Of a DNA stretch of 64,000 nucleotides, positions 2,125 through 55,556 are shown one piece after another. The first letter of the stretch is position 1; each line of letters opens with the position of its first letter. The stretch is from Rickettsiales bacterium (GTDB lineage: Bacteria > Pseudomonadota > Alphaproteobacteria > Rickettsiales > UBA998), in the NCBI GenBank assembly GCA_965248995.1, contig CBDFKY010000022.1, forward strand, positions 15,996-79,995, given 5' to 3'. The notes below the pieces were generated by a model, which saw only the letters and a list, made by a program, of their open reading frames with translations, was not told the origin of the DNA and made no database searches. The position numbers were made by a program, and so were the translations under genes.

Positions 2125-5100
2125 ATGAACCGCAACGCCCTCACTTTTTTCTCCGCCGCCACGTTTTCGACGTTCGCGCTGCTCTCCACCTCAGCCCTCG
2201 CCGCCGGTAAGATCGGCGTGGTCAGCGCGGCCGATCCTTCGGTGCGTATTCTCGGCGTGGACGGCAAGGAACGGCAGGTGAAGCTCGGCGACGGCATTTT
2301 CGCGGACGATACGGTCAAGACCGATGGCAAAGGCAAGGCGCAGCTGGTGTTCGAAGACCGTTCCACCGTGACGGTCAACGAGAATTCGGAACTGAAGATC
2401 GACCATTTCATCTATAATCCCGCCACCGACACCGGCGAGATGGGGATGAAAACGGTGAAAGGTGCGTTCCGCTTCATCGGCGGCGCGCTCTCCAAGCAGC
2501 ATCCGGTGACGATCCAGACCCCGGTGGCGACCATCGGAATCAGGGGCGGGATCGTTGATACGCACGTGGAAGCGAACGGCCGGACGGACGCCGTGTTCGT
2601 CTACGGCAGGGAAATGACCATGACCAACGCGGCGGGCAACCGTTTTTCTACGACGCAGTATGGCACGGGCCTCAGTCTGGCCGATGCGCGGGCGATCCCG
2701 GCTCCGCTTCCGGTCTCGGCGGTGCAGGCCAGCCTGAGCGAATTCGCGCATACCGCTTCCGCAGGCGGCGGCGCTCCGGTGACGCCGACGCCGCAGTCGG
2801 TAGCGCCACAGATGAAGCTGGGTACGGAGGGAAGATCGCCGGAACCGCTTGCCGTTCCTGCTCCCGCGGCGGCCAACGGTCCCGTCGGCGGTGCCGTCAA
2901 TGCGGCGGCGCTTGCCAATCCCGTCCCGGTAACGGCTGCCACCTCTGCCGTGAACAACGCACCGGCTGTCCAGACCGCCGTCCAGCCTAATGCGGCCCAG
3001 CCTAATGCGGCCCAGCCTTCCGCCCCCATCCTGTTCGTCGAAGGAAATTCGGTTTCCGCGCTGGATATCGCCGCCCTCAGCACCAATCTTGCCACGCAAC
3101 AGAAAGACGGCACGACACAGACGGCGGCGACCGCTCCCGAAAAACTGCGCGCCCTGGTGGACGCCCGCAATCTGCAGACGCAGGTCTTGGCGAATGACGG
3201 GTTGAAAAACTTTTTAAGAGATGCCGTATCCGTTCCGGTTCCCGTTTCCGCTGCAGCAACAGGCACCACGCCGACGTTACCGCGTTCCACCCTCCCGGCG
3301 GCAAACCTGCCCACCGTTATTCCGACAGCTAACATTCCGGTCGCGGCAACAGGCGGGGCCGGAGCGGGAGCCGGCAGCGGGGCGGGACTGGCGGAAAATT
3401 TCACCGCGGTGAGCGGGCGCACGGGAAAATTCCTTGTTCTTTCCGATACCAACAGCGACGGCTTCCTCGACGTGGCCAACCAGGGCGATGTCAACATCAC
3501 GCAGGAATCCCCCGATAAATACCGGATTTCCTTCACCTCCACGCTGGCCACCCCGCTTGCGACGCGTAACATCATTGTTCCTAAGCTCACGAGCGCCGGC
3601 GTAACCGATACGACGGCGAACGTCGTGGAGAACGGCGTGATCGGCAGCCGTCATGTGGAAGGGTACCGCACGCAGGGCGGAGCGATGGAAGCATACCATC
3701 TGGAAGATACCGCCGCATCGCTCAGCGATTCCAGCAAGGAAATCAATTTCGTGGTCGGCAGCAATATTTTCGACAATAGTGGCACGTTCGTCGACGCTGC
3801 GGCGCGATCCGTCACCGCCGCCAACAGCGGCAGCGTGCACGGTGCGGCGACCAACGGCGTCCTGCTTTATGATTTCCTCCCGGAAGTCGGGGAAGGCAAC
3901 GGCAACCAGTTCGGCAATTTCAACTATAACCGGGCGAGCGGCATCAACGATACGGACGCCGCCCCGCAATCGCAACAGACGGAATTCGGCACGGCGATCG
4001 ACTGGAAAACGGGCAAGGCCGGAAACCTGTTCAGCGGCCAGGTGAACTGGCTGCCGGTCGGCGGCAAGTCGAGCGCCACGGGTGCGTTCGGCAAGGCGAA
4101 CGCCGCTCCCAGTGCCATCAACGATTATAACATCGCAGGCAAGCGCCTCGCTTATACCGCTGAGGCGGCGGGCACTTCCACGGGCGGTTCGGGCAGCCTG
4201 AAAGGCGACGCGTTCGCGGTGAACGGCGCGGTCTTCGGAAATGTGAACGGTCCGGTGGAAGGCGCCATGGTGAATTACCTGACGCCTACCAATAAAACGA
4301 GCGTGGCTTCCACGGCACAGACCCAGCTGGGACTGACCGGCGGGGCCGTCGCCAACCGGGGAACGCAGGCGATCGCGCTGAAAGGGAACATCAGCGGCGA
4401 CCTCGCCACACAGGTCGCCAATCCGAGCAGCGTCGGCAACCATACCGGCTTTGCTTCGGGAGTGATGATGGTGCATAACGGTACCAATTACACCCCCACC
4501 ATTTTCAGCAATAACGTCAATACGGACGTGGCCCTGACGCCCGCTGCGGGAGGAGTGGTCGGCGGTTCCATCGCGGTGCAGGATTATAATACCAACGGCA
4601 GCGGCGGCGGAGGATACAACACGACGACCACCAGTTTCTCCAATCCCAACAACAGCGTCTATATCAACAACCGGCTATACGCGGCGCAGTCCGGCAGCAC
4701 CACGCATGCCAACAGCCAGACCTTCGATTCCGGCGGCACGACCGGCGCCAATGCCGCGCAGGCGTTCATCGTCAGCGGCGGCGCGGTGAACAACGCCAAA
4801 TCCGGCCTGTCCGGAGGCTATAAATGCGACGACTGCCAGTTCGTCAACTGGGGCGTCTGGTCCGGTGACGTGGGGGAACGCGTCGCCGGCAGCGGTCATG
4901 ATGACTACGCCGCCATGATTCCCTATGTCGTCGGGCAGGTGACCCAGAACGCCTCCCTGCTGGCGCCTCATAGCGCCAATTATAAGGGAGAGGCCTATGC
5001 GACGGTGGTGAAATCGGGCATCAACCCGCAGAACGTTGCCGGAACGATGGATGCGACGGTGAATTATGTGACCGGCCTCCCTCCGCAGTTGAACAACCTC

Positions 5101-5352
5101 AATCTGAATTTCGGAACGGTCCAGGGATCGGACCTGAACCTCCGTAATAACGGCACGGCTGCGGTCGCTCCTTCTGGCGACGCCACCTACAGCGTGCCGC
5201 TGGTCAGCAGCGGCACTCCGGCGGATATCGCCGGCAAGGCGAACGGTGCGCTGTATGGTGCCGCAGCCACGGAAATCGGTGGTAATTACACGTTCAACCG
5301 GACGACTGACAACCTGAACGGCGGCGGGATCTATTTCGGGAAGCAGCGTTAG
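2125..5352 (+). CDS. Large secreted protein with an N-terminal FecR-like domain, a low-complexity Ala/Pro/Thr/Gly-rich middle and a C-terminal TbpB-like beta-barrel
   Basis: Signal peptide (FALLSTSALAAGK). FecR-like block (RILGVDGKERQVKLGDGIFADDTVKTDGKGKAQLVFEDRSTVTVNENSELKIDHF). The C-terminus (CDDCQFVNWGVWSG...YKGEAYATV...GKANGALYGAAATEIGGNYTF...GGGIYFGKQR) resembles the C-terminal barrel of transferrin-binding-protein-B-like surface proteins. Confidence 0.75.
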   Translation: MNRNALTFFSAATFSTFALLSTSALAAGKIGVVSAADPSVRILGVDGKERQVKLGDGIFADDTVKTDGKGKAQLVFEDRSTVTVNENSELKIDHFIYNPATDTGEMGMKTVKGAFRFIGGALSKQHPVTIQTPVATIGIRGGIVDTHVEANGRTDAVFVYGREMTMTNAAGNRFSTTQYGTGLSLADARAIPAPLPVSAVQASLSEFAHTASAGGGAPVTPTPQSVAPQMKLGTEGRSPEPLAVPAPAAANGPVGGAVNAAALANPVPVTAATSAVNNAPAVQTAVQPNAAQPNAAQPSAPILFVEGNSVSALDIAALSTNLATQQKDGTTQTAATAPEKLRALVDARNLQTQVLANDGLKNFLRDAVSVPVPVSAAATGTTPTLPRSTLPAANLPTVIPTANIPVAATGGAGAGAGSGAGLAENFTAVSGRTGKFLVLSDTNSDGFLDVANQGDVNITQESPDKYRISFTSTLATPLATRNIIVPKLTSAGVTDTTANVVENGVIGSRHVEGYRTQGGAMEAYHLEDTAASLSDSSKEINFVVGSNIFDNSGTFVDAAARSVTAANSGSVHGAATNGVLLYDFLPEVGEGNGNQFGNFNYNRASGINDTDAAPQSQQTEFGTAIDWKTGKAGNLFSGQVNWLPVGGKSSATGAFGKANAAPSAINDYNIAGKRLAYTAEAAGTSTGGSGSLKGDAFAVNGAVFGNVNGPVEGAMVNYLTPTNKTSVASTAQTQLGLTGGAVANRGTQAIALKGNISGDLATQVANPSSVGNHTGFASGVMMVHNGTNYTPTIFSNNVNTDVALTPAAGGVVGGSIAVQDYNTNGSGGGGYNTTTTSFSNPNNSVYINNRLYAAQSGSTTHANSQTFDSGGTTGANAAQAFIVSGGAVNNAKSGLSGGYKCDDCQFVNWGVWSGDVGERVAGSGHDDYAAMIPYVVGQVTQNASLLAPHSANYKGEAYATVVKSGINPQNVAGTMDATVNYVTGLPPQLNNLNLNFGTVQGSDLNLRNNGTAAVAPSGDATYSVPLVSSGTPADIAGKANGALYGAAATEIGGNYTFNRTTDNLNGGGIYFGKQR
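2983..3018 (+). repeat. 15-bp in-frame tandem repeat (CAGCCTAATGCGGCC, two copies plus a 6-bp partial copy) inside the FecR-domain gene
   Basis: Read directly: cagcctaatgcggcc cagcctaatgcggcc cagcct, encoding QPNAAQPNAAQP. Confidence 0.85.
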
Positions 5353-5386: not shown

Positions 5387-5490
5387 GTCATAAACCCTTC
5401 ATATTCCCCCTGTACTCAATGTGCTGATTTATGCATTCATTGATTCGGGGGGTGTCCATGAAGAAATTGTTCGCAAGCCCGCTCTGCTCT
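5387..5490 (+). repeat. About 100-bp duplicated promoter/5'-end segment; partner copy at 5941-6042
   Basis: The two segments are colinear and about 80% identical by eye. Compare gtcataaacccttcatattcc...gtgctgatttatgcattcattgattcggggggtgtccATGaagaaattg...gctctgctct with gtcataaaaccttcacattcg...gtgctaatttgttcattcattgattttgaggtatccATGaagaaatttt...gctctgctct. Confidence 0.75.
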
Positions 5491-5610
5491 AATGCAGCGC
5501 AGGCAAACTGGGAGCTTGAAAGTTATTGTTTTAGTGGAAAAAAACCATTGAGCTTCTGGACGGCTGATCCTCCGCAGACTCTACCATTATGCGCTATACT
5601 TCCACTATAG
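5458..5610 (+). pseudogene. Remnant ORF: duplicated 5' end of the 6010-6555 secreted-protein gene, terminated inside repeat element copy 1
   Basis: MKKLFASPLCS... matches MKKFFVGLLCS... of the intact gene only over about 12 codons. The TAG stop at 5608-5610 lies within the first bases of the 117-bp element. Confidence 0.4.
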
Positions 5611-5722
5611 TCATTCCGATTAAAAACCGTACGGTTTTTGTTGGATAAAATGACTATAACCATATATTTTATAGTGTTTTTATCCGAAAATTTCCGTACG
5701 GAAATTATTCGGAAACACTATA
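5606..5722. repeat. 117-bp double-hairpin MITE-like element, copy 1
   Basis: About 92% identical to 9488-9604. It is built from two extended imperfect palindromes (tatagtcatt...aatgactata and tatagtgttt...aaacactata, each enclosing a ccg-tacgg-centred hairpin). Termini are TATAGT...ACTATA. Confidence 0.8.
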
Positions 5723-5727
5723 ACGAT

Positions 5728-5928
5728 GTGTATATTCGAAATAAAATCATCACTATCCCCATGATTTATGATATCGCCCTGTTTCAACAAAAATACGGTG
5801 CGAAGTTCGAGGGGGCAAGCGGGCATGACGTGATCGATGCCAGCAAGGCGATTTCCGGGGCGATCGACCTGCGTGACAGGTTCAATGCCGACAACAAGCT
5901 GCATTTCTCCGGAGTCGGGGGAAAAGTA
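5728..5928 (+). pseudogene. Internal fragment of a second serralysin-like metalloprotease paralog
   Basis: The translation VYIRNKIITIPMIYDIALFQQKYGAKFEGASGHDVIDASKAISGAIDLRDRFNADNKLHFSGVGGKV parallels residues of the 6552-9245 protein (MYVQNKILTTPMVYDIALLQQKYGAHFDG...GASGHDVIDASSAISATIDLRDGFNPDNTPHFSRVGGEV). It lacks the HExxH region, the N-terminus and the RTX part. Confidence 0.7.
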
Positions 5929-6009
5929 CGCTCTTGCGATGTCATAAAACCTTCACATTCGCCTTTCTTGAGCGTGCTAATTTGTTCATTCATTGATTTT
6001 GAGGTATCC

Positions 6010-6555
6010 ATGAAGAAATTTTTTGTAGGCCTGCTCTGCTCTGCATTGCTTTGCTCTGGCGCGGCGAAGGCATATCATCCATTGGAAGTAGGTTGTACCG
6101 TGGAAGAAAAATCAGGTGCGTACTGGGTGAACAATTCTTCAAGAGTAGATACGATTTTTATAGGAAAAGTTATTAGTGTGGATGCAACCGTCATGGATTG
6201 GCCGGAGGATGGTTCGTGCTGGGGAAATTTCTCCGTTTTGGAAGTGTTGAAAGGTAATATAGGCAAAAGGATTTCTGTTAAAATTGCTTATGATCCTGCT
6301 GAAAAAGCGAAAAAAAGAATTAATCCGGAGGGACTGAAGACGGTGGATTACTGCCCATTTGCCTATGGAAAAACTTACGTGGTATATGGACTGCATATAA
6401 AAGATTCACCAGATGTCGGTATGAATGACTGGATAGTAAGCAATTCCAATGCAGGAAACTCGCATTTCAACTGTGCGCCCACCAAAGAAATTCGAGATTC
6501 CGAAACATCCAAAACAAGCGGTAAGATTCGAAATCTGTTAAAGAAAGGAAAATGA
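6010..6555 (+). CDS. Small secreted protein with a TIMP/NTR-like OB-fold pattern; candidate cognate protease inhibitor
   Basis: Signal peptide MKKFFVGLLCSALLCSGAAKA. The stop overlaps the protease start (aaATGAccatg, with the ATG at 6552 and the TGA at 6553-6555). The pattern GC-x(17)-VDTIFIGKVISV...FSVLEVLKGNIGKRISVKI...DYCPFAYGKTYVVYGLH...HFNCAP resembles TIMP/netrin-module proteins. Confidence 0.7.
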   Translation: MKKFFVGLLCSALLCSGAAKAYHPLEVGCTVEEKSGAYWVNNSSRVDTIFIGKVISVDATVMDWPEDGSCWGNFSVLEVLKGNIGKRISVKIAYDPAEKAKKRINPEGLKTVDYCPFAYGKTYVVYGLHIKDSPDVGMNDWIVSNSNAGNSHFNCAPTKEIRDSETSKTSGKIRNLLKKGK

Positions 6556-9245
6556 CCATGTTACCTTACCAAACAGATATTGATTCCCAGCAGAAATGGA
6601 CAACCAGAAACGCGGATAATAACGTTGAACCCGTTTATTACACGTTCAGTTCAACCTACAATACTTCAGACTTCAAACAGGATTTATCAGACAATCATAC
6701 GGCCATCTCCGGCAACGGTGATTCCGCCAAATGGATGATGGCGATGAGCGCAGTCATGGATGTATCCAACATAACTTTCGCCGCTGCGTCTTCTCCTACG
6801 ACGGCGCAACTCGGATTACTTAGTGCAACGATTACCGATCCCAAATTTGCCGGTTACGGATGGAGTTATCCTGACCCCGTTCCAACCATTACTTCAGGCC
6901 TTGCGGTTATTGAAGGTACGCAAAACAGCACTCTCTATATTCATGAACTGTTGCATACGCTTGGGATGGATCATCCGGGCCATGGGCTAGGTGATGCTCC
7001 CGCCTTCGCTCAATACACGGCGGATGCGACAATCATGCGGTACACTTCAACTAACGATATGTATGTTCAAAATAAAATACTCACCACCCCCATGGTCTAT
7101 GACATAGCCTTGCTCCAGCAGAAATACGGCGCACATTTCGACGGGGCAGCCGCAAATATCATAAATACCATCCCCATTGGCGGAACGCAGAACATCGCAC
7201 ATACCTTATGGGAAGGTGGAGCCAGCGGGCATGACGTCATCGACGCAAGCAGCGCGATTTCCGCGACGATCGACCTGCGTGATGGATTCAATCCCGACAA
7301 CACGCCGCATTTCTCCAGAGTCGGAGGGGAAGTGTTTGCGCTGGCGCTTGACCCTAAAACCAATTATCAGCATGTCATTACGATTGAGGACGTGATGGGC
7401 GCCGCTTTCGGTGTCAACCATATTTACGGTAATGATGCCGACAACAAACTCACGGGCGGCACGAAAGTCGATACGCTCGAAGGCGGAGCCGGGCATGACA
7501 CCTATATGCTCACGCAGGCCGCTTCCGCCACTTCGCCCGGCGCCAATCAGGCGGATTACGTGATCGACAGCGACGGCGACGGCAGCATCGTCATCAACGG
7601 CGCTCCCCTGGCGGGGCTTGCGCATTATGTCACCAACACATCCGGCGCTACCAGCTGGACGCTCGGCGGCCATACTATCCGGATGGTAGCCGAAAACCAG
7701 ATCGCGATCGACAGCACCAACAAGACGGGTACCATCGCGCTGGTCTCCGACAACAGTTTCGACATGAAATTCCTCGGCATCACGCTCGACGATAAGACCG
7801 ACGGAACGGCAGGCAACGACAGTCTGGGCGGCGGTAAATACGCTGATCTCATTTCCGGTTTCGCCGGGAACGACACGCTGATCGGCAACGGCGGCGACGA
7901 TACGCTGAGCGGCGGGACGGGAGCGGATTCGCTGGTCGGCGGCGCGGGGAACGATGCATATCATTACGCGAAACTCGACGGCGCGGACACGATTTCCGAC
8001 AACGGCTACAACGCCGACGACGATACGCTGACCATCAGCGGTTATGCGTCCGGCGCCGCCAGCTACACGCGGATCGGCAACACCACCGATTTCACCGTTT
8101 CCTTCAGCGGTGGCGGCGGTGATTCCGTGTTGATAAAGCAAGGGTTGCAGGGCGGCAGCAACGCGATTGAACATATCGTCTTCACCAGCGGCGGCGGGGA
8201 GGAGATCGACCAGATCCGCACCGACGTGCTGGCAAAACAGGCGACCGCGGGAAATGACACCATCAACGGGTTTTACGGCGCGGCGAATACCATCGGCGGC
8301 GGTGCGGGCAATGATTCACTAAGCGGCAATTCGCTCACCGATCAACTGCACGGCGACGCAGGCAACGATACCCTGCTCGGCGGCTACGGCAACGACACGC
8401 TGAGCGGCGGCACCGGCGCGGATTTCCTGCAGGGCGGCGGGGGCGACGATCTTTTCCTCTTCGCTAAAGGAGACGGTACGGATACGATCCAGGATTACGG
8501 CAACAGCACCGATCTCGGCGACACGCTTTCCATCACGGGGTATGCGTCCACCGCGGCGCTGTATAGCCGCATCGGCAACAGCGACGATTTTACCGTCTCT
8601 TTTACGGGCGGCACGGATTCCATCACGGTGAAACGCGGACTGGAGGCGGGAGGCAATACGCTGGAGCATATCACCTTCGCAGGCGGCGGCGACAAAACCG
8701 TGGCGCAGCTGCGCACCGAGCTGCTGTTAAAACAAACGACCTCGGGAAACGACGTCATCGTTGGTTTTACGGGCGCGGCCAACGTGATCAGCGGGGCGGC
8801 GGGTAACGATTCCATTACCGGCAGCACGGTCGCGGACGTGCTGCACGGCGACGGCGGCAGGGATACGCTGGTCGGCGGCTATGGTAACGACAGCCTGACC
8901 GGTGGTACCGGAGTGGATATCCTGACCGGCGGCTACAATGCCGACAGCTTCATTTTCATGAAAGGCGATACGGGCGCGGGCGCGAGCGCCGACCATGTCA
9001 CCGACTTCAGCCGCGTACAGAACGACAGGATCGCGCTGCTGGGATACGGGCTCAGCGCCGCGCATTTCGTCGCGGATGCGAGTTTTCACGCGGGCAGTAC
9101 CGCGGAATTCGGCTATACCAAGGTGGCGAGCGGAAACTATACGCTCATCCGCATCGATTCCGATCATAACGGCACGTCCGATCAGGAAATCCGTCTGGAC
9201 GGGATTCAGCTTGACATGCATGTCGGGGATTTCGTCTTCGCTTGA
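6552..9245 (+). CDS. Serralysin-type metzincin metalloprotease with RTX calcium-binding repeats (probable T1SS substrate)
   Basis: HELLHTLGMDHPGH matches HExxHxxGxxH, and there is a Met-turn candidate ADATIMRY. Many GGxGxD nonapeptides are present (GNDTLIGNGGDDTLSGGTGADSLVGGAGND...). The C-terminus is acidic and hydrophobic (...LDMHVGDFVFA), as in T1SS substrates. Confidence 0.85.
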   Translation: MTMLPYQTDIDSQQKWTTRNADNNVEPVYYTFSSTYNTSDFKQDLSDNHTAISGNGDSAKWMMAMSAVMDVSNITFAAASSPTTAQLGLLSATITDPKFAGYGWSYPDPVPTITSGLAVIEGTQNSTLYIHELLHTLGMDHPGHGLGDAPAFAQYTADATIMRYTSTNDMYVQNKILTTPMVYDIALLQQKYGAHFDGAAANIINTIPIGGTQNIAHTLWEGGASGHDVIDASSAISATIDLRDGFNPDNTPHFSRVGGEVFALALDPKTNYQHVITIEDVMGAAFGVNHIYGNDADNKLTGGTKVDTLEGGAGHDTYMLTQAASATSPGANQADYVIDSDGDGSIVINGAPLAGLAHYVTNTSGATSWTLGGHTIRMVAENQIAIDSTNKTGTIALVSDNSFDMKFLGITLDDKTDGTAGNDSLGGGKYADLISGFAGNDTLIGNGGDDTLSGGTGADSLVGGAGNDAYHYAKLDGADTISDNGYNADDDTLTISGYASGAASYTRIGNTTDFTVSFSGGGGDSVLIKQGLQGGSNAIEHIVFTSGGGEEIDQIRTDVLAKQATAGNDTINGFYGAANTIGGGAGNDSLSGNSLTDQLHGDAGNDTLLGGYGNDTLSGGTGADFLQGGGGDDLFLFAKGDGTDTIQDYGNSTDLGDTLSITGYASTAALYSRIGNSDDFTVSFTGGTDSITVKRGLEAGGNTLEHITFAGGGDKTVAQLRTELLLKQTTSGNDVIVGFTGAANVISGAAGNDSITGSTVADVLHGDGGRDTLVGGYGNDSLTGGTGVDILTGGYNADSFIFMKGDTGAGASADHVTDFSRVQNDRIALLGYGLSAAHFVADASFHAGSTAEFGYTKVASGNYTLIRIDSDHNGTSDQEIRLDGIQLDMHVGDFVFA
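8028..8975 (+). repeat. Intragenic tandem duplication of an RTX module (period about 490 bp, two copies) inside the metalloprotease gene
   Basis: The protein blocks DDTLTISGYASGAASYTRIGNTTDFTVSFSGG...LFLFAKGDGTDTI and DTLSITGYASTAALYSRIGNSDDFTVSFTGG...SFIFMKGDTG align colinearly at roughly 60% aa identity by eye. Confidence 0.6.
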
Positions 9246-9254
9246 AACGGATAT

Positions 9255-9470
9255 TTATTCGATCAATAAACCTTTCAAAACTTCAAGTTCATATGATTTT
9301 TTAGCAAAAGAAAGTATTTCTTCATTAATGACTTCATTATGATACTCTTTCATCCATTCAAGTTTCTCAATTATTTTTTTCTGAAGAATTTTTAGAAAAT
9401 CTTTTTTTGATAATATTTTTATGGTTTTGCAAAAAATTGATCCATTCTGAATAACCGTGATCCATTTCAC
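9255..9470 (-). CDS. Small AT-rich ORF; possibly the displaced C-terminal part of the upstream cyclase-like gene
   Basis: 71-aa ORF with helical-looking sequence (KDFLKILQKKIIEKLEWMKEYHNEVINEEILSFAKKSYELEVLKGLL). It is separated from the cyclase-like ORF only by repeat element copy 2. No RBS was checked. Confidence 0.3.
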   Translation of the reverse strand: MKWITVIQNGSIFCKTIKILSKKDFLKILQKKIIEKLEWMKEYHNEVINEEILSFAKKSYELEVLKGLLIE

Positions 9471-9487
9471 CTAAACTAGCTCTAAGA

Positions 9488-9604
9488 TATAGTCATTCCG
9501 ATTAAAAACCGTACGGTTTTAATCGGATAAAATGACTATAACCATATAATTTATAGTGTTTTTAACCGAAAATTTTCGTACGAAAATTATTCGGAAACAC
9601 TATA
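9488..9604. repeat. 117-bp double-hairpin MITE-like element, copy 2
   Basis: Same length and architecture as 5606-5722. It contains the near-perfect palindrome ccgattaaaaaccgtacggttttaatcgg. Its last 18 nt supply the final codons and the TAA stop of ORF 9587-10183. Confidence 0.8.
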
Positions 9605-10183
9605 ATCAATAAACCACACCCCCTTTTTATCTTTTTTTGTAATTTTACTTAAAAGTTCTTTTTCATCTTCCCAAAGATTATTTTCATTCCACAAACGCTT
9701 ATCTTTTCGATATTTTTTGAGTGCTTTCTTACTAATAATGATGCGAGGGTGAATAGCAGAGGTATTTTCAAATATATAAGCTTCAACGAGTGCAGGACCG
9801 AAAATGGGCCCATTCAAATTTCGGCCAACATGCATTTCACCTATTGTTAGAGCGCCTCGAATTAAAATATTTTGCTTTATACATGCTATTTGCAAGTTCA
9901 ATAAAATTAATAGTTCCCATCCAAAAGCTCCTGTAAAACATTCTGTTCCAATGGTTCGAAATCTAACAATAGCGTCTGAGATTATTTCAGATCCCGCAGC
10001 AGTGTAAAGCCTTCGTTCACTAAAACTAGTTTTCGAATCCTTCAGCGTAGGCTTAGAAAAACCTCGAAATCTTTTTAAAATTTCCGCAATTTTTTTAGCT
10101 GATGATGAATCTAATAAATCTTTAAATCCTAAAATATCTATAAACGTGACGATGCATTCTTCATAAGTTGAATCATATTTCAA
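9587..10183 (-). CDS. Class III nucleotidyl cyclase-like (palm-domain) protein, probably truncated by element insertion
   Basis: Motif order matches adenylyl/guanylyl cyclase catalytic domains. IVTFIDILGFKDLL compares with vlFaDivGFT (first metal Asp). SEIISDAIVRF carries the second Asp. IRGALTIGEMHVG compares with lRiGihtGpvvaG. PIFGPALVEAYIFEN compares with dvwGdtVNlAsRlEs. The gene is very AT-rich. It starts at a TTG 12 nt after the purU stop, and its C-terminal codons YSVSE-stop come from the repeat element. Confidence 0.6.
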   Translation of the reverse strand: MKYDSTYEECIVTFIDILGFKDLLDSSSAKKIAEILKRFRGFSKPTLKDSKTSFSERRLYTAAGSEIISDAIVRFRTIGTECFTGAFGWELLILLNLQIACIKQNILIRGALTIGEMHVGRNLNGPIFGPALVEAYIFENTSAIHPRIIISKKALKKYRKDKRLWNENNLWEDEKELLSKITKKDKKGVWFIDYSVSE

Positions 10184-10195
10184 AGTGAGGGCCCG

Positions 10196-11062
10196 TTACT
10201 TGAACACCACCGTCTTATTCCCGTTGAGCAGGACACGATGCTCGGTATGGTAGCGCACGGCGCGGTAGAGCACCATGCTCTCGATCTCCTGTCCGACGCT
10301 GACGAAATCTTCCGGCCTGTAGGTATGGTCGACGCGGGCGACCTCCTGCTCGATGATGGGGCCTTCATCCAGGTCTTCCGTCACGTAATGCGCGGTGGCG
10401 CCGATCAGTTTCACCCCTCGCGTATGCGCCTGATGGTACGGTTTCGCCCCTTTGAAACTCGGCAGGAACGAGTGATGGATATTGATGGCCCTTCCCTCGA
10501 ACGCCGTGCACAGATCCGCGGAGAGTACCTGCATGTAGCGGGCCAGCACGATGACGTCGACCGCGTGGCTCTCTACCAGTTCCAGCAGCCGCTCTTCCTG
10601 CGCCTCCTTTCCCCGTTTGTCGATCGGCAGGTGGTAATACGGAATGTCATACCACGCCACCAGCCGCTGCAGGTCCGGGTGGTTGGAGACGACCAGCGGA
10701 ATCTCCACGTTCAGCGTGCCGCTCTGATACCGGTGCAGCAGCGTGTTCAGGCAGTGGCTGGCTTTGGAGACCATGATCATCACCCGCGGCTTACGCAGGC
10801 CGTCATGCAGGTGGTAGCGCATTTTGAAAGGTGTGCCGACCTCGTCGGCGAACAGTTTCCGCAGAGACGCGTCGTGCGGCGTCTGTTCGGTCGCTGCGAA
10901 ATGAATGCGCTGAAAAAAAGTGGAGGTGGCCGGATCGCCGTACTGGGTGGATTCCAAAATGAATCCCTGCTGGCCAGAAATAAATCCCGAGACGGCGGCG
11001 ACGATTCCCCGCACGTCGGGGCAGGCGATGGTCAGGACATATTCACGGCGGGCTTGGGTCAT
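10196..11062 (-). CDS. purU: Formyltetrahydrofolate deformylase
   Basis: N-terminal ACT-like region followed by a formyltransferase core (INIHHSFLPSFKGAKPYHQAHTRGVKLIGATAHYVTEDLDEGPIIEQ). Length 288 aa is typical. Confidence 0.93.
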   Translation of the reverse strand: MTQARREYVLTIACPDVRGIVAAVSGFISGQQGFILESTQYGDPATSTFFQRIHFAATEQTPHDASLRKLFADEVGTPFKMRYHLHDGLRKPRVMIMVSKASHCLNTLLHRYQSGTLNVEIPLVVSNHPDLQRLVAWYDIPYYHLPIDKRGKEAQEERLLELVESHAVDVIVLARYMQVLSADLCTAFEGRAINIHHSFLPSFKGAKPYHQAHTRGVKLIGATAHYVTEDLDEGPIIEQEVARVDHTYRPEDFVSVGQEIESMVLYRAVRYHTEHRVLLNGNKTVVFK

Positions 11063-11333
11063 GGGATGGTTGTAGAGCGTTGTCGATTATTTGCAAGCGC
11101 GGCGATATTTTCGGGGATATTTATCGCAACATCGTTAACCATAGCCGCGCTTGTAAGCAGGAGTGCCTCTGGTGGAATGGCAGGTAGCCCCGGCGTCAAG
11201 GGATGCCGGAAGCCATCGTCGCCAATCCGGAAGTGCGGCGGGTCTATCCGGGTAACCGGTTCGCGCTCTGATCTGAAACAAATCGTTGCCTGCGCAGCCG
11301 CCTTGGAGTAGGCTCCGCTCCATAACGTCCAGT

Positions 11334-12488
11334 ATGGAATGTATGAACACGCACGCATGGCTAAGCGGCGACCCTACGATCGATTTCGCGGTACGCTCCA
11401 CCAACAATCCTTCTTTCCATTTCGGATCCGCCGCCGGCCGCTTCCTGGTCCTGTGCTTTTACGGATCGATGGCGATTGAAAAAAACGCACGCGCCATCGC
11501 TTTTTTTACGGGCGAGATGCGGGCGCATTTCGACGATAAACATCTTTCGTTCTTCGGCGTCAGCATCGACCGGGGCGACGAGGTGGAAGGGCGGGTGAGA
11601 GAAATGGTTCCCGGTTTTCGCTATTTCTGGGATTTTGAGCAGGAAGTAAGCACGTTGTACGGCGCGATCGACGCGGACAAAACCAAGACGGAAGGGATCA
11701 CCCGCTACAGCCCGTTTACCCTGGTCCTCGACCCGGGCCTGCGGGTCATCGCCGCCATTCCGCTTAAAGATGCCGAGCAGCATAATCAAGCGGTGCGCGC
11801 CTGCATTGAGGGTCTGCCGAAGGTGGACGAGCATGCGGGCGTGCCGATCACCGCGCCGGTGCTGATCATTCCCCGTGTGCTGGAGCCGGAGTTCTGCGCC
11901 ACGCTGATTTCTCTCTATGAGGAGCACGGGGGAAAGGAATCCGGCAGCATGAAGCAGAAGGACGGCTATACGGTCGGCAGGATCGACCATCATTTCAAGC
12001 GCCGCTCGGATTACACCGTCACGGACGAAACCATCCGCCTGGCTCTGTGTGCCCGGATCGAACGCCGCATCGTCCTGGAAATCTTCAAGGCGTTTCAGTT
12101 CAAGGCCACGCATATCGAACGCTATATCGTCGCCTGCTATGACGGGGAGCATAAGGGATTTTTCATGCCTCACCGGGATAATACCACGAAAGCCACCGCC
12201 CACCGCCGCTTCGCCTGCACCATCAACCTGAATGCGGAAGCGTATGAGGGCGGCGACCTGCGCTTTCCCGAATTCGGGCGCGCTACCTACCGCGCGCCGA
12301 CCGGCGGGGCGGCGGTGTTTTCCTGCTCCCTCCTGCATGAGGCGACCCCGGTGACTCGGGGAAAGCGCTATGCCACCCTGCCGTTTCTCTATGATGCGGA
12401 AGGGGCGAAACTGCGGCGGGAAAACGAGCGGTTTTTGAAAAGCGGGATGATCGATATGAATGCGCCAAACGGGAATGCGGCGTCGTAG
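11334..12488 (+). CDS. Fusion protein: thioredoxin-fold (AhpC/TSA-like) N-domain plus 2OG-Fe(II) oxygenase C-domain
   Basis: The C-terminal half has HxD...H oxygenase hallmarks (FFMPHRDNTT...GGDLRFPE...SCSLLHEATPVTRGKRYATLPFLY). The N-terminal half resembles redoxins (GRFLVLCFYGS...FFGVSID) but has no clear CxxC. ATG at 11334 is preferred to the TTG at 11286. Confidence 0.7.
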   Translation: MECMNTHAWLSGDPTIDFAVRSTNNPSFHFGSAAGRFLVLCFYGSMAIEKNARAIAFFTGEMRAHFDDKHLSFFGVSIDRGDEVEGRVREMVPGFRYFWDFEQEVSTLYGAIDADKTKTEGITRYSPFTLVLDPGLRVIAAIPLKDAEQHNQAVRACIEGLPKVDEHAGVPITAPVLIIPRVLEPEFCATLISLYEEHGGKESGSMKQKDGYTVGRIDHHFKRRSDYTVTDETIRLALCARIERRIVLEIFKAFQFKATHIERYIVACYDGEHKGFFMPHRDNTTKATAHRRFACTINLNAEAYEGGDLRFPEFGRATYRAPTGGAAVFSCSLLHEATPVTRGKRYATLPFLYDAEGAKLRRENERFLKSGMIDMNAPNGNAAS

Positions 12489-12572
12489 AAAGTGAAGGGA
12501 CATCTATCGTCAGCGGGAATAGGATACTTCCATGATCCCCGGTGGATGCGCGGGCCGGCAGAATGGCCCGTT

Positions 12573-13703
12573 CTAAGACAGCCGCCGTTCAAAATCCTCA
12601 TACCCGAACGATCGCAGCACGCGGTACGTGCCGTCTTTTTCCAATACTCCGATGTCCGGCAGTGGAACCCCATTGAAGGTGGTGTTCTTGACGAAACTGT
12701 ACTGCATCATATCGGTGAAAACCACGGTATCACCCGAACGCAGCGGCTCCGCGAAACGGTACGTACCGATGATGTCTCCCGTCAGGCAGGTGTTTCCCGC
12801 CAGCAGGTATTCATGGCCGTGCGTGGCATCGTCACCGATCACGTGCGGGCGGTAGGGGACTTCCAGCACGTCCGGCATGTGGCAGGTGGCGGACGCGTCG
12901 AGGATGGCGATTCGCGTCCCGTCCCGCTCCATCACATCGACGACTCTCGCCGCCAGATATCCCGCGTCATACACATGCGCGGCGCCCGATTCCAGGATGA
13001 CGCGCACGCCGAAACGGGACTGCAGGCGATTGACGGCGGCGATCAGCGCGTCCACGTCATAGTCGGGATGCGTGAAATAATGCCCGCCGCCCAGATTGAC
13101 GCGGTCGACCGCTTCCAGGACATGCGGGCATAATTGCATGACATGGTCGACCAGCGCCACCGAGTCCTCCGCCTGGCTCTCGCAGAGATTATGAATATGC
13201 AGCAGGTTCATGTCCCCCAGCACGTCCTGCGTCAGGGCATCCAGTTCCACGCCGAAGCGGGAGCAGGGGGAGGAAGGATCGTAAATGGCGTTGTTTTTCA
13301 CCAGTGACAAACGCGGATTCAAACGCAGGCCCTTCACCGCGAAACGCTCGCCATAGCTTCGCAGCTGCGCGACCGAGTTAAAGGAAATATGGCTGCAGAT
13401 GGGGCTCAGGCCCTCGATGTCCGCGGCGGTGAACGCCGGTGAATAGGCGTGTACTTCCCCGCCGAAATGCCGGGCACCGAGCATCGCTTCATACAGCCCG
13501 CTCGCCGTGGTGCCGTCCAGGACGTTGCGAAAACTGTCGAACAGTCCGAACGCCGCGAACGCCTTGGTGGCCAGCAGCATCGTGCATCCCGTTTCACGTT
13601 TGATGCGCTCAGCGATGGACAGGTTCGCTTCAATGCGGGCGCGGTCCGCGACATAGGCGGGGGTGCGGATGGTTTTGGGGATGGTCAGCATGATCGTTAC
13701 CAT
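12573..13703 (-). CDS. nspC: Carboxynorspermidine/carboxyspermidine decarboxylase
   Basis: TPAYVADRARIEANL, LLATKAF, NLGGGHYFT, LESGAAHV, AGNTCLTGDIIGTYRF and MQYSFVKNTTFNGVPLP match the NspC family pattern. The start is ambiguous (13703 or 13691). Confidence 0.85.
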   Translation of the reverse strand: MVTIMLTIPKTIRTPAYVADRARIEANLSIAERIKRETGCTMLLATKAFAAFGLFDSFRNVLDGTTASGLYEAMLGARHFGGEVHAYSPAFTAADIEGLSPICSHISFNSVAQLRSYGERFAVKGLRLNPRLSLVKNNAIYDPSSPCSRFGVELDALTQDVLGDMNLLHIHNLCESQAEDSVALVDHVMQLCPHVLEAVDRVNLGGGHYFTHPDYDVDALIAAVNRLQSRFGVRVILESGAAHVYDAGYLAARVVDVMERDGTRIAILDASATCHMPDVLEVPYRPHVIGDDATHGHEYLLAGNTCLTGDIIGTYRFAEPLRSGDTVVFTDMMQYSFVKNTTFNGVPLPDIGVLEKDGTYRVLRSFGYEDFERRLS

Positions 13704-14298: not shown

Positions 14299-14410
14299 AA
14301 GCGAAGTACACAGTAATGGAACATTCTAAAAACGAAGTTTTAGACTTCCAAAATCTCTCAACTAAAATTTATAGTTAATTCAAAATTTACACGGATGATT
14401 GTATTATGTT

Positions 14411-14731
14411 ATGATGAGTCATAGCATGGATTTACGGCGTCGCGTTGTTGCGTATGTCAGGGGCGGTGGAAGTAAGGCGGAAGCTGCCCGTCGGTTTGGG
14501 GTACACCATGGGTGTGTGTTTGATTGGATCACGCGTGATCGGTTGGAAGCGAAGAAACCGGGTCCGCGCAAGGCGCATAAACTGGACATAGAAGCACTGC
14601 AACAGGCGGTGGAATGTCAACCTGAGGTAATGGGTAAGGAACTGGCGGTACACTTTGGGGTAAGGCCGAGTACGATCTGCTATGCGCTGAAGCGGTTGAA
14701 CATCAGTCGTAAAAAAAACCTGGACGTATAA
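14411..14731 (+). CDS. IS630-family transposase, N-terminal HTH part (orfA)
   Basis: SMDLRRRVVAYVRGGGSKAEAARRFGVHHGCVFDWI is typical of IS630/Tc1 N-terminal HTH regions. The ORF ends just after an A8 run at 14711-14718. Confidence 0.75.
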   Translation: MMSHSMDLRRRVVAYVRGGGSKAEAARRFGVHHGCVFDWITRDRLEAKKPGPRKAHKLDIEALQQAVECQPEVMGKELAVHFGVRPSTICYALKRLNISRKKNLDV

Positions 14732-14786
14732 AGAAAGCGACAACGAGAAACGCAAAGCGTACCTCAAGCGCTGGTGGCGTTACCGG

Positions 14787-15242
14787 ATGCAGGGCAAGCA
14801 GTTTGTGTATGTCGATGAAAGCGCCTTCGCACCCACCGCCGAACGCACGCATGGCTTCGCCCGAAAAGGCAAGCGTGTGCATGGGCAACGCAGCGGGCAG
14901 CGCAGACCCCGCACCAGTTTCCTGGCAGCCTTGTGCGGCAAGCAAATGCTTGCCCCCTTCCTCTTTCAGGGTACCTGCAACACTGCCGTTTTTAATGCTT
15001 GGCTAGAGCAGGAACTCTGCCCGCATCTTACCCCTAACAGCGTTGTCATTATGGACAACGCCACCTTCCATAAATCTACTTTAACACAACAGCTTATTCA
15101 GCAACGACAGGCAACGCTATTGTTCCTGCCTCCCTATTCTCCCGATCTCAATCCTATCGAAAAACGTTTCGGCACCATCAAACGATACCGATCCTACACA
15201 CCAGAAATATCCCTCAATCTTCTCATTCAAACATACGGATAA
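14787..15242 (+). CDS. IS630-family transposase, DDE catalytic part (orfB; the frame is open from about 14709)
   Basis: FVYVDESAF, VVIMDNATFHKS and LPPYSPDLNPIEKRF form the DDE triad. The frame is +1 relative to orfA, and reading KKTWTYKESDNEKRKAYLKRWW across the A8 run joins the two parts. Confidence 0.75.
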   Translation: MQGKQFVYVDESAFAPTAERTHGFARKGKRVHGQRSGQRRPRTSFLAALCGKQMLAPFLFQGTCNTAVFNAWLEQELCPHLTPNSVVIMDNATFHKSTLTQQLIQQRQATLLFLPPYSPDLNPIEKRFGTIKRYRSYTPEISLNLLIQTYG

Positions 15243-54731: not shown

Positions 54732-55556
54732 ATGTCTGTTCATACGTTCACCAGCGGCGACGATACCTACAGCATCACTCCGGGCGGTGCGATCGAGAAA
54801 CTGGCGGTCTTCGACGGGCGCGGCGGAGATGATGACCTCGGCATTTTTCGCGTGAGCGGAAATTATGAGATAAACGGCGGTGCCGGCAATGACACGATCA
54901 CCACCGGCTACACCGGTTCGGAGGCGCACTTTACAGTCCATGGCGGTTCCGGGGATGACGTGATCCAGGGCGTCGGAGGCGTCAACGAAGTGTATGGCGG
55001 TACGGGCAACGATACGATCGAAGGATCGTTCGGCGCGTTCACGATTCAGGGCGGAGCGGGAAACGATTCGATCACGCTGGGCAGTTATGCTTCCGGCGAG
55101 CTGTTCGGAGGTTCCGGCAACGATACGATCACAGCGTTGGCGCAGCGTGACCAGTACACCATGCACGGCGGCAGCGGAGATGATCAGCTTACCGGCATCG
55201 GCAATTTCAGCTCCATCAATGAAACCTATTACGGGGACACGGGCAACGATACCATCAGCTCACTCGGCGGAAACGATACGCTGGACGGCGGCAAAGGCAA
55301 CGACGTGCTGTTCGGCGGCGGCGGGGACGATACGTTCGTTTTCCATGGTAAAGACGGCGTGGACACCATTCAGGATTTCACGGTCGGACAGGATAAGGTG
55401 GAGTTTCATATCGCCGGGCTGCATTACGGCGACCTGCATTTCGTCAACAGCGGCAACGATGTGATCATCGAATACGGGCACAACGCCGAGAGCAAAATCA
55501 TTCTGGAAAATCACCATGCGGCTGATCTGCACGCGTCGGATTTTCATTTCGTATGA
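54732..55556 (+). CDS. Small RTX (hemolysin-type calcium-binding repeat) protein
   Basis: About 10 GGxGxD-type nonapeptides (GGAGNDTITTG, GGSGDDVIQG, GGTGNDTIEG, GGKGNDVLFGGGGDDTFVF). The C-terminus is like secreted RTX proteins. Confidence 0.8.
   Translation: MSVHTFTSGDDTYSITPGGAIEKLAVFDGRGGDDDLGIFRVSGNYEINGGAGNDTITTGYTGSEAHFTVHGGSGDDVIQGVGGVNEVYGGTGNDTIEGSFGAFTIQGGAGNDSITLGSYASGELFGGSGNDTITALAQRDQYTMHGGSGDDQLTGIGNFSSINETYYGDTGNDTISSLGGNDTLDGGKGNDVLFGGGGDDTFVFHGKDGVDTIQDFTVGQDKVEFHIAGLHYGDLHFVNSGNDVIIEYGHNAESKIILENHHAADLHASDFHFV

Follow-up and report, generated by a model that had tools for sequence, protein, structure and literature searches.

An exported protein with a predicted NTR/TIMP-type fold, encoded beside a serralysin-family RTX metalloprotease, as candidate inhibitor of its partner

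The gene pair and its products

Two adjacent genes were analysed in a stretch of 64,000 nucleotides (nt) from a Rickettsiales bacterium (assembly GCA_965248995.1, contig CBDFKY010000022.1, positions 15,996 to 79,995 of the forward strand). This whole stretch is called the window, and position 1 is its first letter. The first gene encodes a small exported protein and the second, directly downstream, a metalloprotease with repeats-in-toxin (RTX) sequences. The coordinates of both and of the associated features are collected in Table 1. An earlier note, made from the letters alone, had described the first product as a secreted protein resembling tissue inhibitors of metalloproteinases (TIMP) and netrin (NTR) modules, and the second as a serralysin-type RTX metzincin translationally coupled to it.

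The N-terminus of the small protein reads MKKFFVGLLCSALLCSGAAKA followed, after an A-x-A cleavage site, by YHPLEVGC, as expected for the secreted open reading frame (ORF) of 181 amino acids (aa) that the note had read here. From this Sec signal the protein is predicted to be exported to the periplasm, and some relatives to be lipid-anchored. A spurious ORF at 6010-6555 was considered and rejected on the conservation of the family with its four invariant or nearly invariant Cys. No Pfam, NCBIfam or PADLOC model matched the small protein, PADLOC was likewise negative for the neighbouring genes, and a promoter/terminator scan of the leader (5941-6009) found no consensus sigma-70 promoter.

At the junction, the stop codon TGA (6553-6555) of the small gene overlaps an ATG at 6552, on which the note had based the coupling (ATGA). 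The Shine-Dalgarno sequence lies 8 nt from a second ATG at 6558 and just 2 nt from that at 6552, and homologous proteases start MLPY/MLAY/MLLY-x-TD..S..KW. The ATG at 6558 was favoured because of these homologous N-termini and the Shine-Dalgarno spacing. The protease thus probably starts at 6558, with a gap of 2 nt after the stop of the small gene and no 4-nt overlap, and the ATGA may be incidental. The overlap with ATG 6552 stands as read but the start assigned to it probably does not; the two genes are tightly coupled whichever start applies.

The 897-aa product was matched by Pfam HemolysinCabind (9.9e-27, in seven stretches) and HCBP_related (9e-9), and by NCBIfam Zn_serralysin at E 9e-32 with a score of 110.8, below the cutoff of 500. 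Pfam Peptidase_M10 and Peptidase_M10_C did not match it, and phmmer with the single sequence found nothing in the PDB. A profile of the protease subfamily matched the catalytic domains of Dickeya PrtC (1k7g, 1e-32), Serratia serralysin (1sat, 5e-27) and Pseudomonas alkaline protease (1kap, 7e-26). Because of these matches, of a Pro following the third His and of the Tyr in the Met-turn, the protein was assigned by sequence to the serralysin family (M10B-like) as a divergent RTX metzincin, in line with the note. The protease core gave insignificant matches only in a phage collection, and tblastn with the small protein gave no match in phage and plasmid collections.

Table 1. Positions in the window of the gene pair and of the decayed cassette upstream of it.
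Feature	Position	Strand	Remarks
5' leader, decayed cassette	5387-5457	+	blastn 5387-5490 vs 5941-6042: 78% over 104 nt
Small-gene remnant MKKLFASPLCSNAAQANWELESYCFSGKKPLSFW	5458-5559	+	34 codons; 38% identity to intact residues 1-39
Protease remnant SADSTIMRYTST, Met-turn region	5571-5630	+	blastx vs residues 156-175, 55% identity
Protease remnant, residues 168-261, internal 25-aa deletion	5722-5928	+	54% aa identity, E 7e-27
5' leader, intact operon	5941-6009	+	kept in common with leader of decayed copy
Ribosome-binding site GAGG, small gene	6001-6004	+	read directly from sequence
Small gene	6010-6555	+	181-aa ORF, read from sequence; mature protein = residues 22-181
Signal peptide of small protein	6010-6072	+	Sec type: MKK, hydrophobic core, AKA before Y
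Start of mature small protein	6073	+	YHPLEVGC
Conserved Cys codons, small gene	6094, 6217, 6352, 6472	+	C29, C70, C115, C155
Shine-Dalgarno AAGGA, protease gene	6545-6549	+	inside last codons of small gene
Serralysin-family RTX metalloprotease gene	6552-9245	+	897 aa counted from ATG 6552
Zinc site HELLHTLGMDHPGH	6942-6983	+	protease residues 131-144; HExxHxxGxxHP type
Met-turn IMRY	7032-7043	+	protease residues 161-164
GGxGxD-type RTX repeats	~7482-8918	+	within protease gene
C-terminal tail ...GDFVFA, type I secretion type	ends 9242	+	protease gene

Decayed cassette and codon composition

A second copy of the cassette, made up of small gene and protease gene and now decayed, is present directly upstream (5387-5928). 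The hidden Markov model (HMM) of the small-protein family, described below, matched the ORF at 5428-5607, over the small-gene remnant, at E 3e-4, and the last protease remnant is 78-84% identical in nucleotides to 7052-7333. The reading frame of this remnant continues into the intact small gene, and the public annotation has accordingly fused the two into one chimeric ORF of 301 aa (P0001). The note had recorded neither the decayed copy nor the chimeric call.

The GC content at third codon positions (GC3) rises along the operon, from 0.385 in the small gene through about 0.5-0.6 in the catalytic part of the protease gene to 0.76 in its RTX part, which is on a level with host genes (0.70-0.80). 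The shift inside the operon falls at about 7300-7450. The gradient points either to a recently imported 5' half or to a chimeric protease gene. Tandem decaying cassettes and foreign codon composition together suggest a mobile, fast-evolving module of protease and partner.

Family and linkage to protease genes

Relatives of the small protein were searched exhaustively with HMMER among 1.84 billion cluster representatives, yielding 19 sequences (E 2e-16 to 9e-4, identity 22-36%). A word-indexed search of 5.8 billion proteins returned only the small protein itself, filed as the 301-aa product, and three members when a profile was used. Metagenome scans with subset profiles of the small protein and of the protease gave no matches. 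The family is real but rare. In its alignment W39, I49, C70, C115, Y123, C155 and P157 are invariant, and C29, G52, W71, K81 and G127 nearly so.

In most members the A-x-A cleavage site is followed directly by S-H-P-L-[E/Q]-x-x-C. The N-terminal type goes with the type of protease: a signal peptidase I signal with [S/Y]HPL[E/Q] was paired with a HELLH-type protease in 4/4 cases (the subclade of the window), and a lipobox or long N-terminus with a HE[L/V/I]GH-type protease in 5/5. Lipoprotein members (locus L013, 153-740 and 1517-2116; locus L095, 362-976) have a lipobox LAAC or LASC and a linker of 25-40 residues ahead of the first conserved Cys, unlike the soluble SHPLE-type members, which include the protein of the window.

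Linkage was assessed on the contigs of 11 relatives and on one locus from a scan of reference genomes with the protease profile. The scan of all loci combined the family HMM with a pattern for the zinc motif. One (L009) was too short, and 12 distinct loci including the window were judged informative. A gene with HExxHxxGxxH, or a clearly homologous protease gene, began -17 to +12 nt from the stop of the small gene in 10 of the 12. These are the window, L001, L003, L095, L096 and L011; L007, which has two pairs and one more small ORF not recognised by the family HMM; L010 and L012, each with a frameshifted protease; and L013, with two pairs. The linkage to metzincin genes expected from the note was thus found, and its recurrence argues that the juxtaposition is not due to chance. 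The ribosome-binding site of the protease lies within the 3'-terminal codons of the small gene, with AAGGA or GGAG likewise placed in L007, L011, L001 and L003.

Pairwise identity among the small proteins rises with that among the cognate proteases (r = 0.70), and none of 5000 Mantel permutations gave a value as high. Divergence is faster in the small partner than in the protease, with 41% against 72% identity between the two L013 pairs and 30% against 52% between the window and the first L007 pair. The pair behaves as a unit, as seen in the tandem arrays of L007 and L013, the decayed second cassette and the co-divergence.

Several further arrangements were noted at these loci. In P0007 (L007 6001-6588) and P0010 (L011 1940-2554), a protease N-terminus (MLPYxTDxxSxxKW) is fused ahead of the signal peptide of the small protein. 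Each is preceded by a decayed small gene, and the fusions resemble scars left by deletions between cassettes in tandem. An exported ORF of 176 aa at L007 9038-9568, unmatched by the family HMM, is TIMP-like by eye (...AEVILQVKLL...YEIKKIWKG...). It is followed (9571-12588) by a 2421-aa RTX protein with the zinc motif HEIGHILGLRD, whose third His is gone. At L011 149-628 an unrelated exported ORF of 159 aa is separated by 2 nt from a metzincin fragment (HELLHTLGLDHPGH); it may encode a partner protein of another kind.

Predicted fold of the small protein

The structure was modelled with AlphaFold2 on the family alignment; a single-sequence run reached just 34 in the predicted local distance difference test (pLDDT) and was discarded. 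The model (pLDDT 81.9, predicted template modelling score 0.77) is a five-stranded oligonucleotide/oligosaccharide-binding (OB) barrel. Its strands are at residues 48-60, 69-81, 87-93, 122-133 and 138-145, with a short helix at 36-41, a long C-terminal helix at 163-180 and helical turns linking strand 3 to strand 4. Foldseek against the PDB gave 31 matches at E <= 1e-3, all but two of them NTR modules. The C345C domains of complement C3/C4/C5 scored best (6xzu_B, E 8.7e-6), followed by agrin NtA (1pxu, 1jc7 and 3i70, E ~1e-4, target-normalised TM 0.62-0.66; deposited as 'structurally related to N-TIMP-1') and the NTR module of PCOLCE1 (1uap, E 5.6e-4). TIMP-2 (1br9, E 1.3e-3) and the meteorin NTR module (7tlh, E 1.9e-3) were slightly outside the threshold of 1e-3. 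Generic OB folds (SSB, Teb1, LysRS) scored below the NTR modules, and neither Inh, the periplasmic inhibitor of classical serralysins, nor the potempins discussed below were among the top 50 PDB matches. The model thus supports an NTR/TIMP-type five-stranded OB barrel, and its strands coincide with the segments that the note had aligned by eye with TIMP.

The motif resemblances themselves did not hold up in profile comparisons. Pfam TIMP, NTR and NtA matched none of 20 family members at E <= 10; a divergent L007 paralogue (7830-8204) was matched by NtA at E 0.038, weaker than threshold. A search of PDB sequences with the family profile (hmmsearch) returned nothing relevant. When the family alignment was compared by hhalign with an N-TIMP alignment (TIMP-1 to -4, with the TIMP-2 sequence checked against 1br9), the probability was 0.9% over nine columns, pairing only aYHPLEvgC with P5-VHPQQAF-C13 of TIMP.

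Membership of the TIMP family proper was rejected on three grounds: the missing Cys1-x-Cys3, the Cys count and the lack of profile similarity. In TIMPs the alpha-amine and carbonyl of Cys1 chelate the catalytic zinc. The mature small protein, as the note had remarked, begins YHPLEVGC and not with Cys1; its first Cys is residue 8 and it contains no CxC. The family has four conserved Cys, which imply two disulfides in an exported protein, compared with six (three disulfides) in the N-domain of TIMP. With the TIMP/NTR group (MEROPS I35; PF00965, PF01759, PF03146) it would share the predicted barrel, the helix before strand 1 and the C-terminal helix, and as in TIMP it is tied to a metzincin. It differs from TIMP in being bacterial and, as predicted, periplasmic, in having no TIMP C-terminal domain and in the seven residues that precede the first Cys. 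On the sequences, homology to TIMP is not demonstrated.

A fold otherwise typical of eukaryotes, together with a GC3 of 0.385 against about 0.75 in the host, which makes the small gene look imported, raises the reading that the protein is a mimic directed at the host. It would then have been acquired from a eukaryote, would travel with the protease gene and would act as an effector on eukaryotic matrix metalloproteinases, ADAMs or matrix partners. The sole taxonomically labelled relative comes from a metagenome-assembled genome (MAG) of Rickettsiales, and the GC content of most related loci is low to moderate (0.35-0.56). However, the sequence showed no detectable resemblance to any NTR or TIMP of eukaryotes, the Sec-only signal targets the periplasm and not a host, and the conserved translational coupling and co-divergence with a bacterial protease favour an intrinsic partner. 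We regard this reading as very unlikely.

Comparison with Inh

Reference genomes were scanned with the protease profile, giving 80 serralysin-type loci (among them Pseudomonas, Pectobacterium, Dickeya, Serratia, Morganella and Hyphomicrobiaceae). The new family was found in one of these, L013, from a Rickettsiales MAG. An iterated Inh HMM detected an Inh-like ORF in 31 of the 80, none of which carries the new family, and no Inh was found at loci that do carry it. Inh and the new family are alternative, mutually exclusive neighbours of serralysin genes.

Identity with classical Inh was rejected, as the note had also held: PF02974 matched neither the small protein nor the 20 members, and it matched AprI beside aprA in a Pseudomonas locus used as control (L046 4932-5303) at 1.1e-16. 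The likeness to Inh/AprI/SmaPI (MEROPS I38) is one of setting. Each is a small Sec-exported protein encoded beside the gene of an RTX serralysin secreted by a type I secretion system (T1SS), and each would neutralise its cognate protease in the periplasm. Each also has a free N-terminus right after the cleavage site, that of the L046 AprI being SSLVLP after A, with Ser first as in the SHPLE relatives. The differences are a predicted five-stranded OB barrel with helices in place of the eight-stranded up-and-down barrel of Inh, the lack of any sequence relationship, and the four conserved Cys. Finally, the gene of the new family is directly upstream of the protease gene and translationally coupled to it, whereas aprI is downstream of aprA.

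Proposed function

The small protein is proposed to be the periplasmic cognate inhibitor of its serralysin, taking the place of Inh, and we give this proposal an even chance. It draws on the conserved coupling, the co-divergence, the multiplication and decay of the pair as a unit and the opposite export routes of the two products, and also on the scaffold of a metzincin inhibitor, the complementary distribution with Inh and the orphan copies of the small gene. The two genes would form one operon for a protease and its dedicated partner. The protease would be exported in one step by a T1SS, bypassing the periplasm, as its RTX repeats and acidic-hydrophobic C-terminus suggest. In the periplasm, the small protein is predicted to fold as a disulfide-stabilised barrel of NTR/TIMP type, and it would bind the catalytic domain of the cognate protease 1:1 and block the active-site cleft. 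Envelope proteins would thereby be shielded from protease that folds early, leaks or re-enters. This would be the role of Inh/AprI for classical serralysins, on a TIMP-like scaffold. The N-termini of both Inh and TIMP are directed at the active site, and by analogy the free N-terminus of SHPLE-type members is plausible as an active-site-directed element.

A precedent for an inhibitor encoded in this position is given by the potempins PotA, PotC and PotD of Tannerella forsythia, OB-fold lipoproteins whose inhibition has been proven experimentally and whose genes are directly upstream of, and co-transcribed with, those of the KLIKK peptidases, including the metzincins karilysin and mirolysin (PMC9890683). 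Potempins are specific for the genetically linked enzyme (PMC9890683). The new family shares with them a small OB fold (predicted here), the upstream gene, the linked enzyme, multiplied loci and, in some members, a lipoprotein signal. They differ in that potempins inhibit through the strand 4-5 loops and not the N-terminus, occur in Bacteroidota alongside cargo of the type IX secretion system, in contrast to the RTX serralysin and T1SS here, and in that inhibition is proven there and inferred here.

The only studied bacterial pair of a metzincin and a TIMP-like protein, Mtz-Tim of Listeria monocytogenes, bears on the principal rival. There the metzincin cuts its co-encoded partner Tim about 50 residues in from the N-terminus, a cleavage on which the phenotypes depend (PMC8235301). 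Compared by description, the two systems share a metzincin gene beside that of an exported protein, a predicted TIMP-like fold without sequence similarity, conservation of the pair as a unit and a tie to mobile or imported DNA. The Listeria pair comes from a Gram-positive organism and is phage-associated, with a metzincin other than an RTX serralysin and with tim downstream of mtz, and Tim is a lipoprotein with cell-wall phenotypes. By extension, the small protein of the window could be a substrate or pro-effector, cleaved by the protease to release a soluble fragment that acts on the envelope or the host. The lipoprotein members of L013 and L095, with their 25-40 residues of linker before the first conserved Cys, would suit such a role. 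However, neither the window protein nor any of its closest relatives is a lipoprotein, their conserved N-terminus comes immediately after the cleavage site, the gene order is opposite to that in Listeria, and a presumed T1SS substrate would not normally meet a periplasmic protein. We consider cleavage of this kind unlikely; of the rivals it is the main one, the roles of helper or anchor and of host mimic being less likely.

An obligatory helper would likewise account for the translational coupling and the strict co-inheritance. Such a factor for folding, secretion or anchoring, for example a tether in the periplasm or outer membrane or a propeptide acting in trans, would be required for the protease to be produced or kept at the surface. 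The lipoprotein versions could serve as surface anchors, and binding is a common function of NTR modules, among them the matched agrin NtA and C345C domains. T1SS substrates such as RTX proteins, however, fold outside the cell upon Ca2+ binding and are not known to have periplasmic chaperones. The orphan small genes (L005, L093) suit an inhibitor or immunity role better, and the complementary distribution with Inh points to replacement of an inhibitor. A helper function is accordingly judged quite unlikely.

Several observations weigh against inhibition. No T1SS genes were found within the window. Two of the 12 informative loci have no adjacent protease (L005, with unrelated convergent genes, and L093/L094, with tandem small genes). 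The Mantel correlation would also be expected under simple co-inheritance. Many NTR modules are binding domains without an inhibitory role, and the inhibitory N-terminus of TIMP (alpha-amine of Cys1, Cys1-x-Cys3) is missing from the small protein. The N-termini in L013, L095, L001 and L096 are lipidated or long, and because of this a mechanism by way of the N-terminus is not valid family-wide. In Listeria the TIMP-like protein is a substrate of Mtz, and inhibition was not shown there (PMC8235301).

A more far-reaching form of the inhibitor proposal is that an undescribed bacterial lineage of the NTR/TIMP fold has displaced Inh as true serralysin inhibitors. It would combine an N-terminal trunk of Inh type (SHPLE), reaching to the zinc site, with a TIMP scaffold, and it might be linked to eukaryotic NTR/TIMP proteins by transfer to or from the hosts of Rickettsiales-like bacteria. 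We hold this form to be doubtful.

Neighbourhood in the window

Directly upstream of the decayed cassette, 2125-5352 encodes an exported protein of 1075 aa with an N-terminal FecR domain and a body rich in Ala, Pro, Gly and Thr, preceded at 1682-2089 by the gene of a small tetratricopeptide repeat protein. The segment after the operon (9246-10195) has a very low GC content of 0.31. It holds an orphan ORF of 198 aa on the reverse strand (9587-10183, GC3 0.23), whose start has a faint likeness to class III nucleotide cyclases (Pfam Guanylate_cyc, E 0.086) and which neither PADLOC nor NCBIfam matched. An IS630-type transposase in two ORFs (14399-15242; HTH_Tnp_IS630 1.5e-25, DDE_3 1.9e-37) has no close copy in the plasmid collection. 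A second, small RTX protein of 274 aa (54732-55556) has a weak Peptidase_M10_C match and the tail ...SDFHFV; it is probably a further protein that the host exports by a T1SS. Elsewhere the window is ordinary chromosome, carrying polA, acnA, uvrB, gltX and purU.

Significance

Bacterial protease inhibitors encoded together with their enzymes are known, namely Inh, the staphostatins and the potempins. Literature searches returned nothing on an NTR/TIMP-fold partner of RTX serralysins. The small proteins are an unannotated family in a new context, with the potempins and Mtz-Tim as nearest precedents. The idea has more precedent than the earlier note implied, as both the Listeria pair (PMC8235301) and the OB-fold potempins (PMC9890683) had been published.

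If the small protein is an inhibitor, bacteria would have paired a TIMP-type OB scaffold with the control of a metzincin, independently or by exchange with eukaryotes. This would be a third route to self-protection from serralysins and metzincins, besides Inh and the potempins, and a function would be assigned to a family that has no Pfam or NCBIfam annotation. The loci would also supply naturally co-diversified pairs of inhibitor and protease for studies of specificity, and because serralysins are virulence factors, such pairs would be leads for selective serralysin inhibitors.

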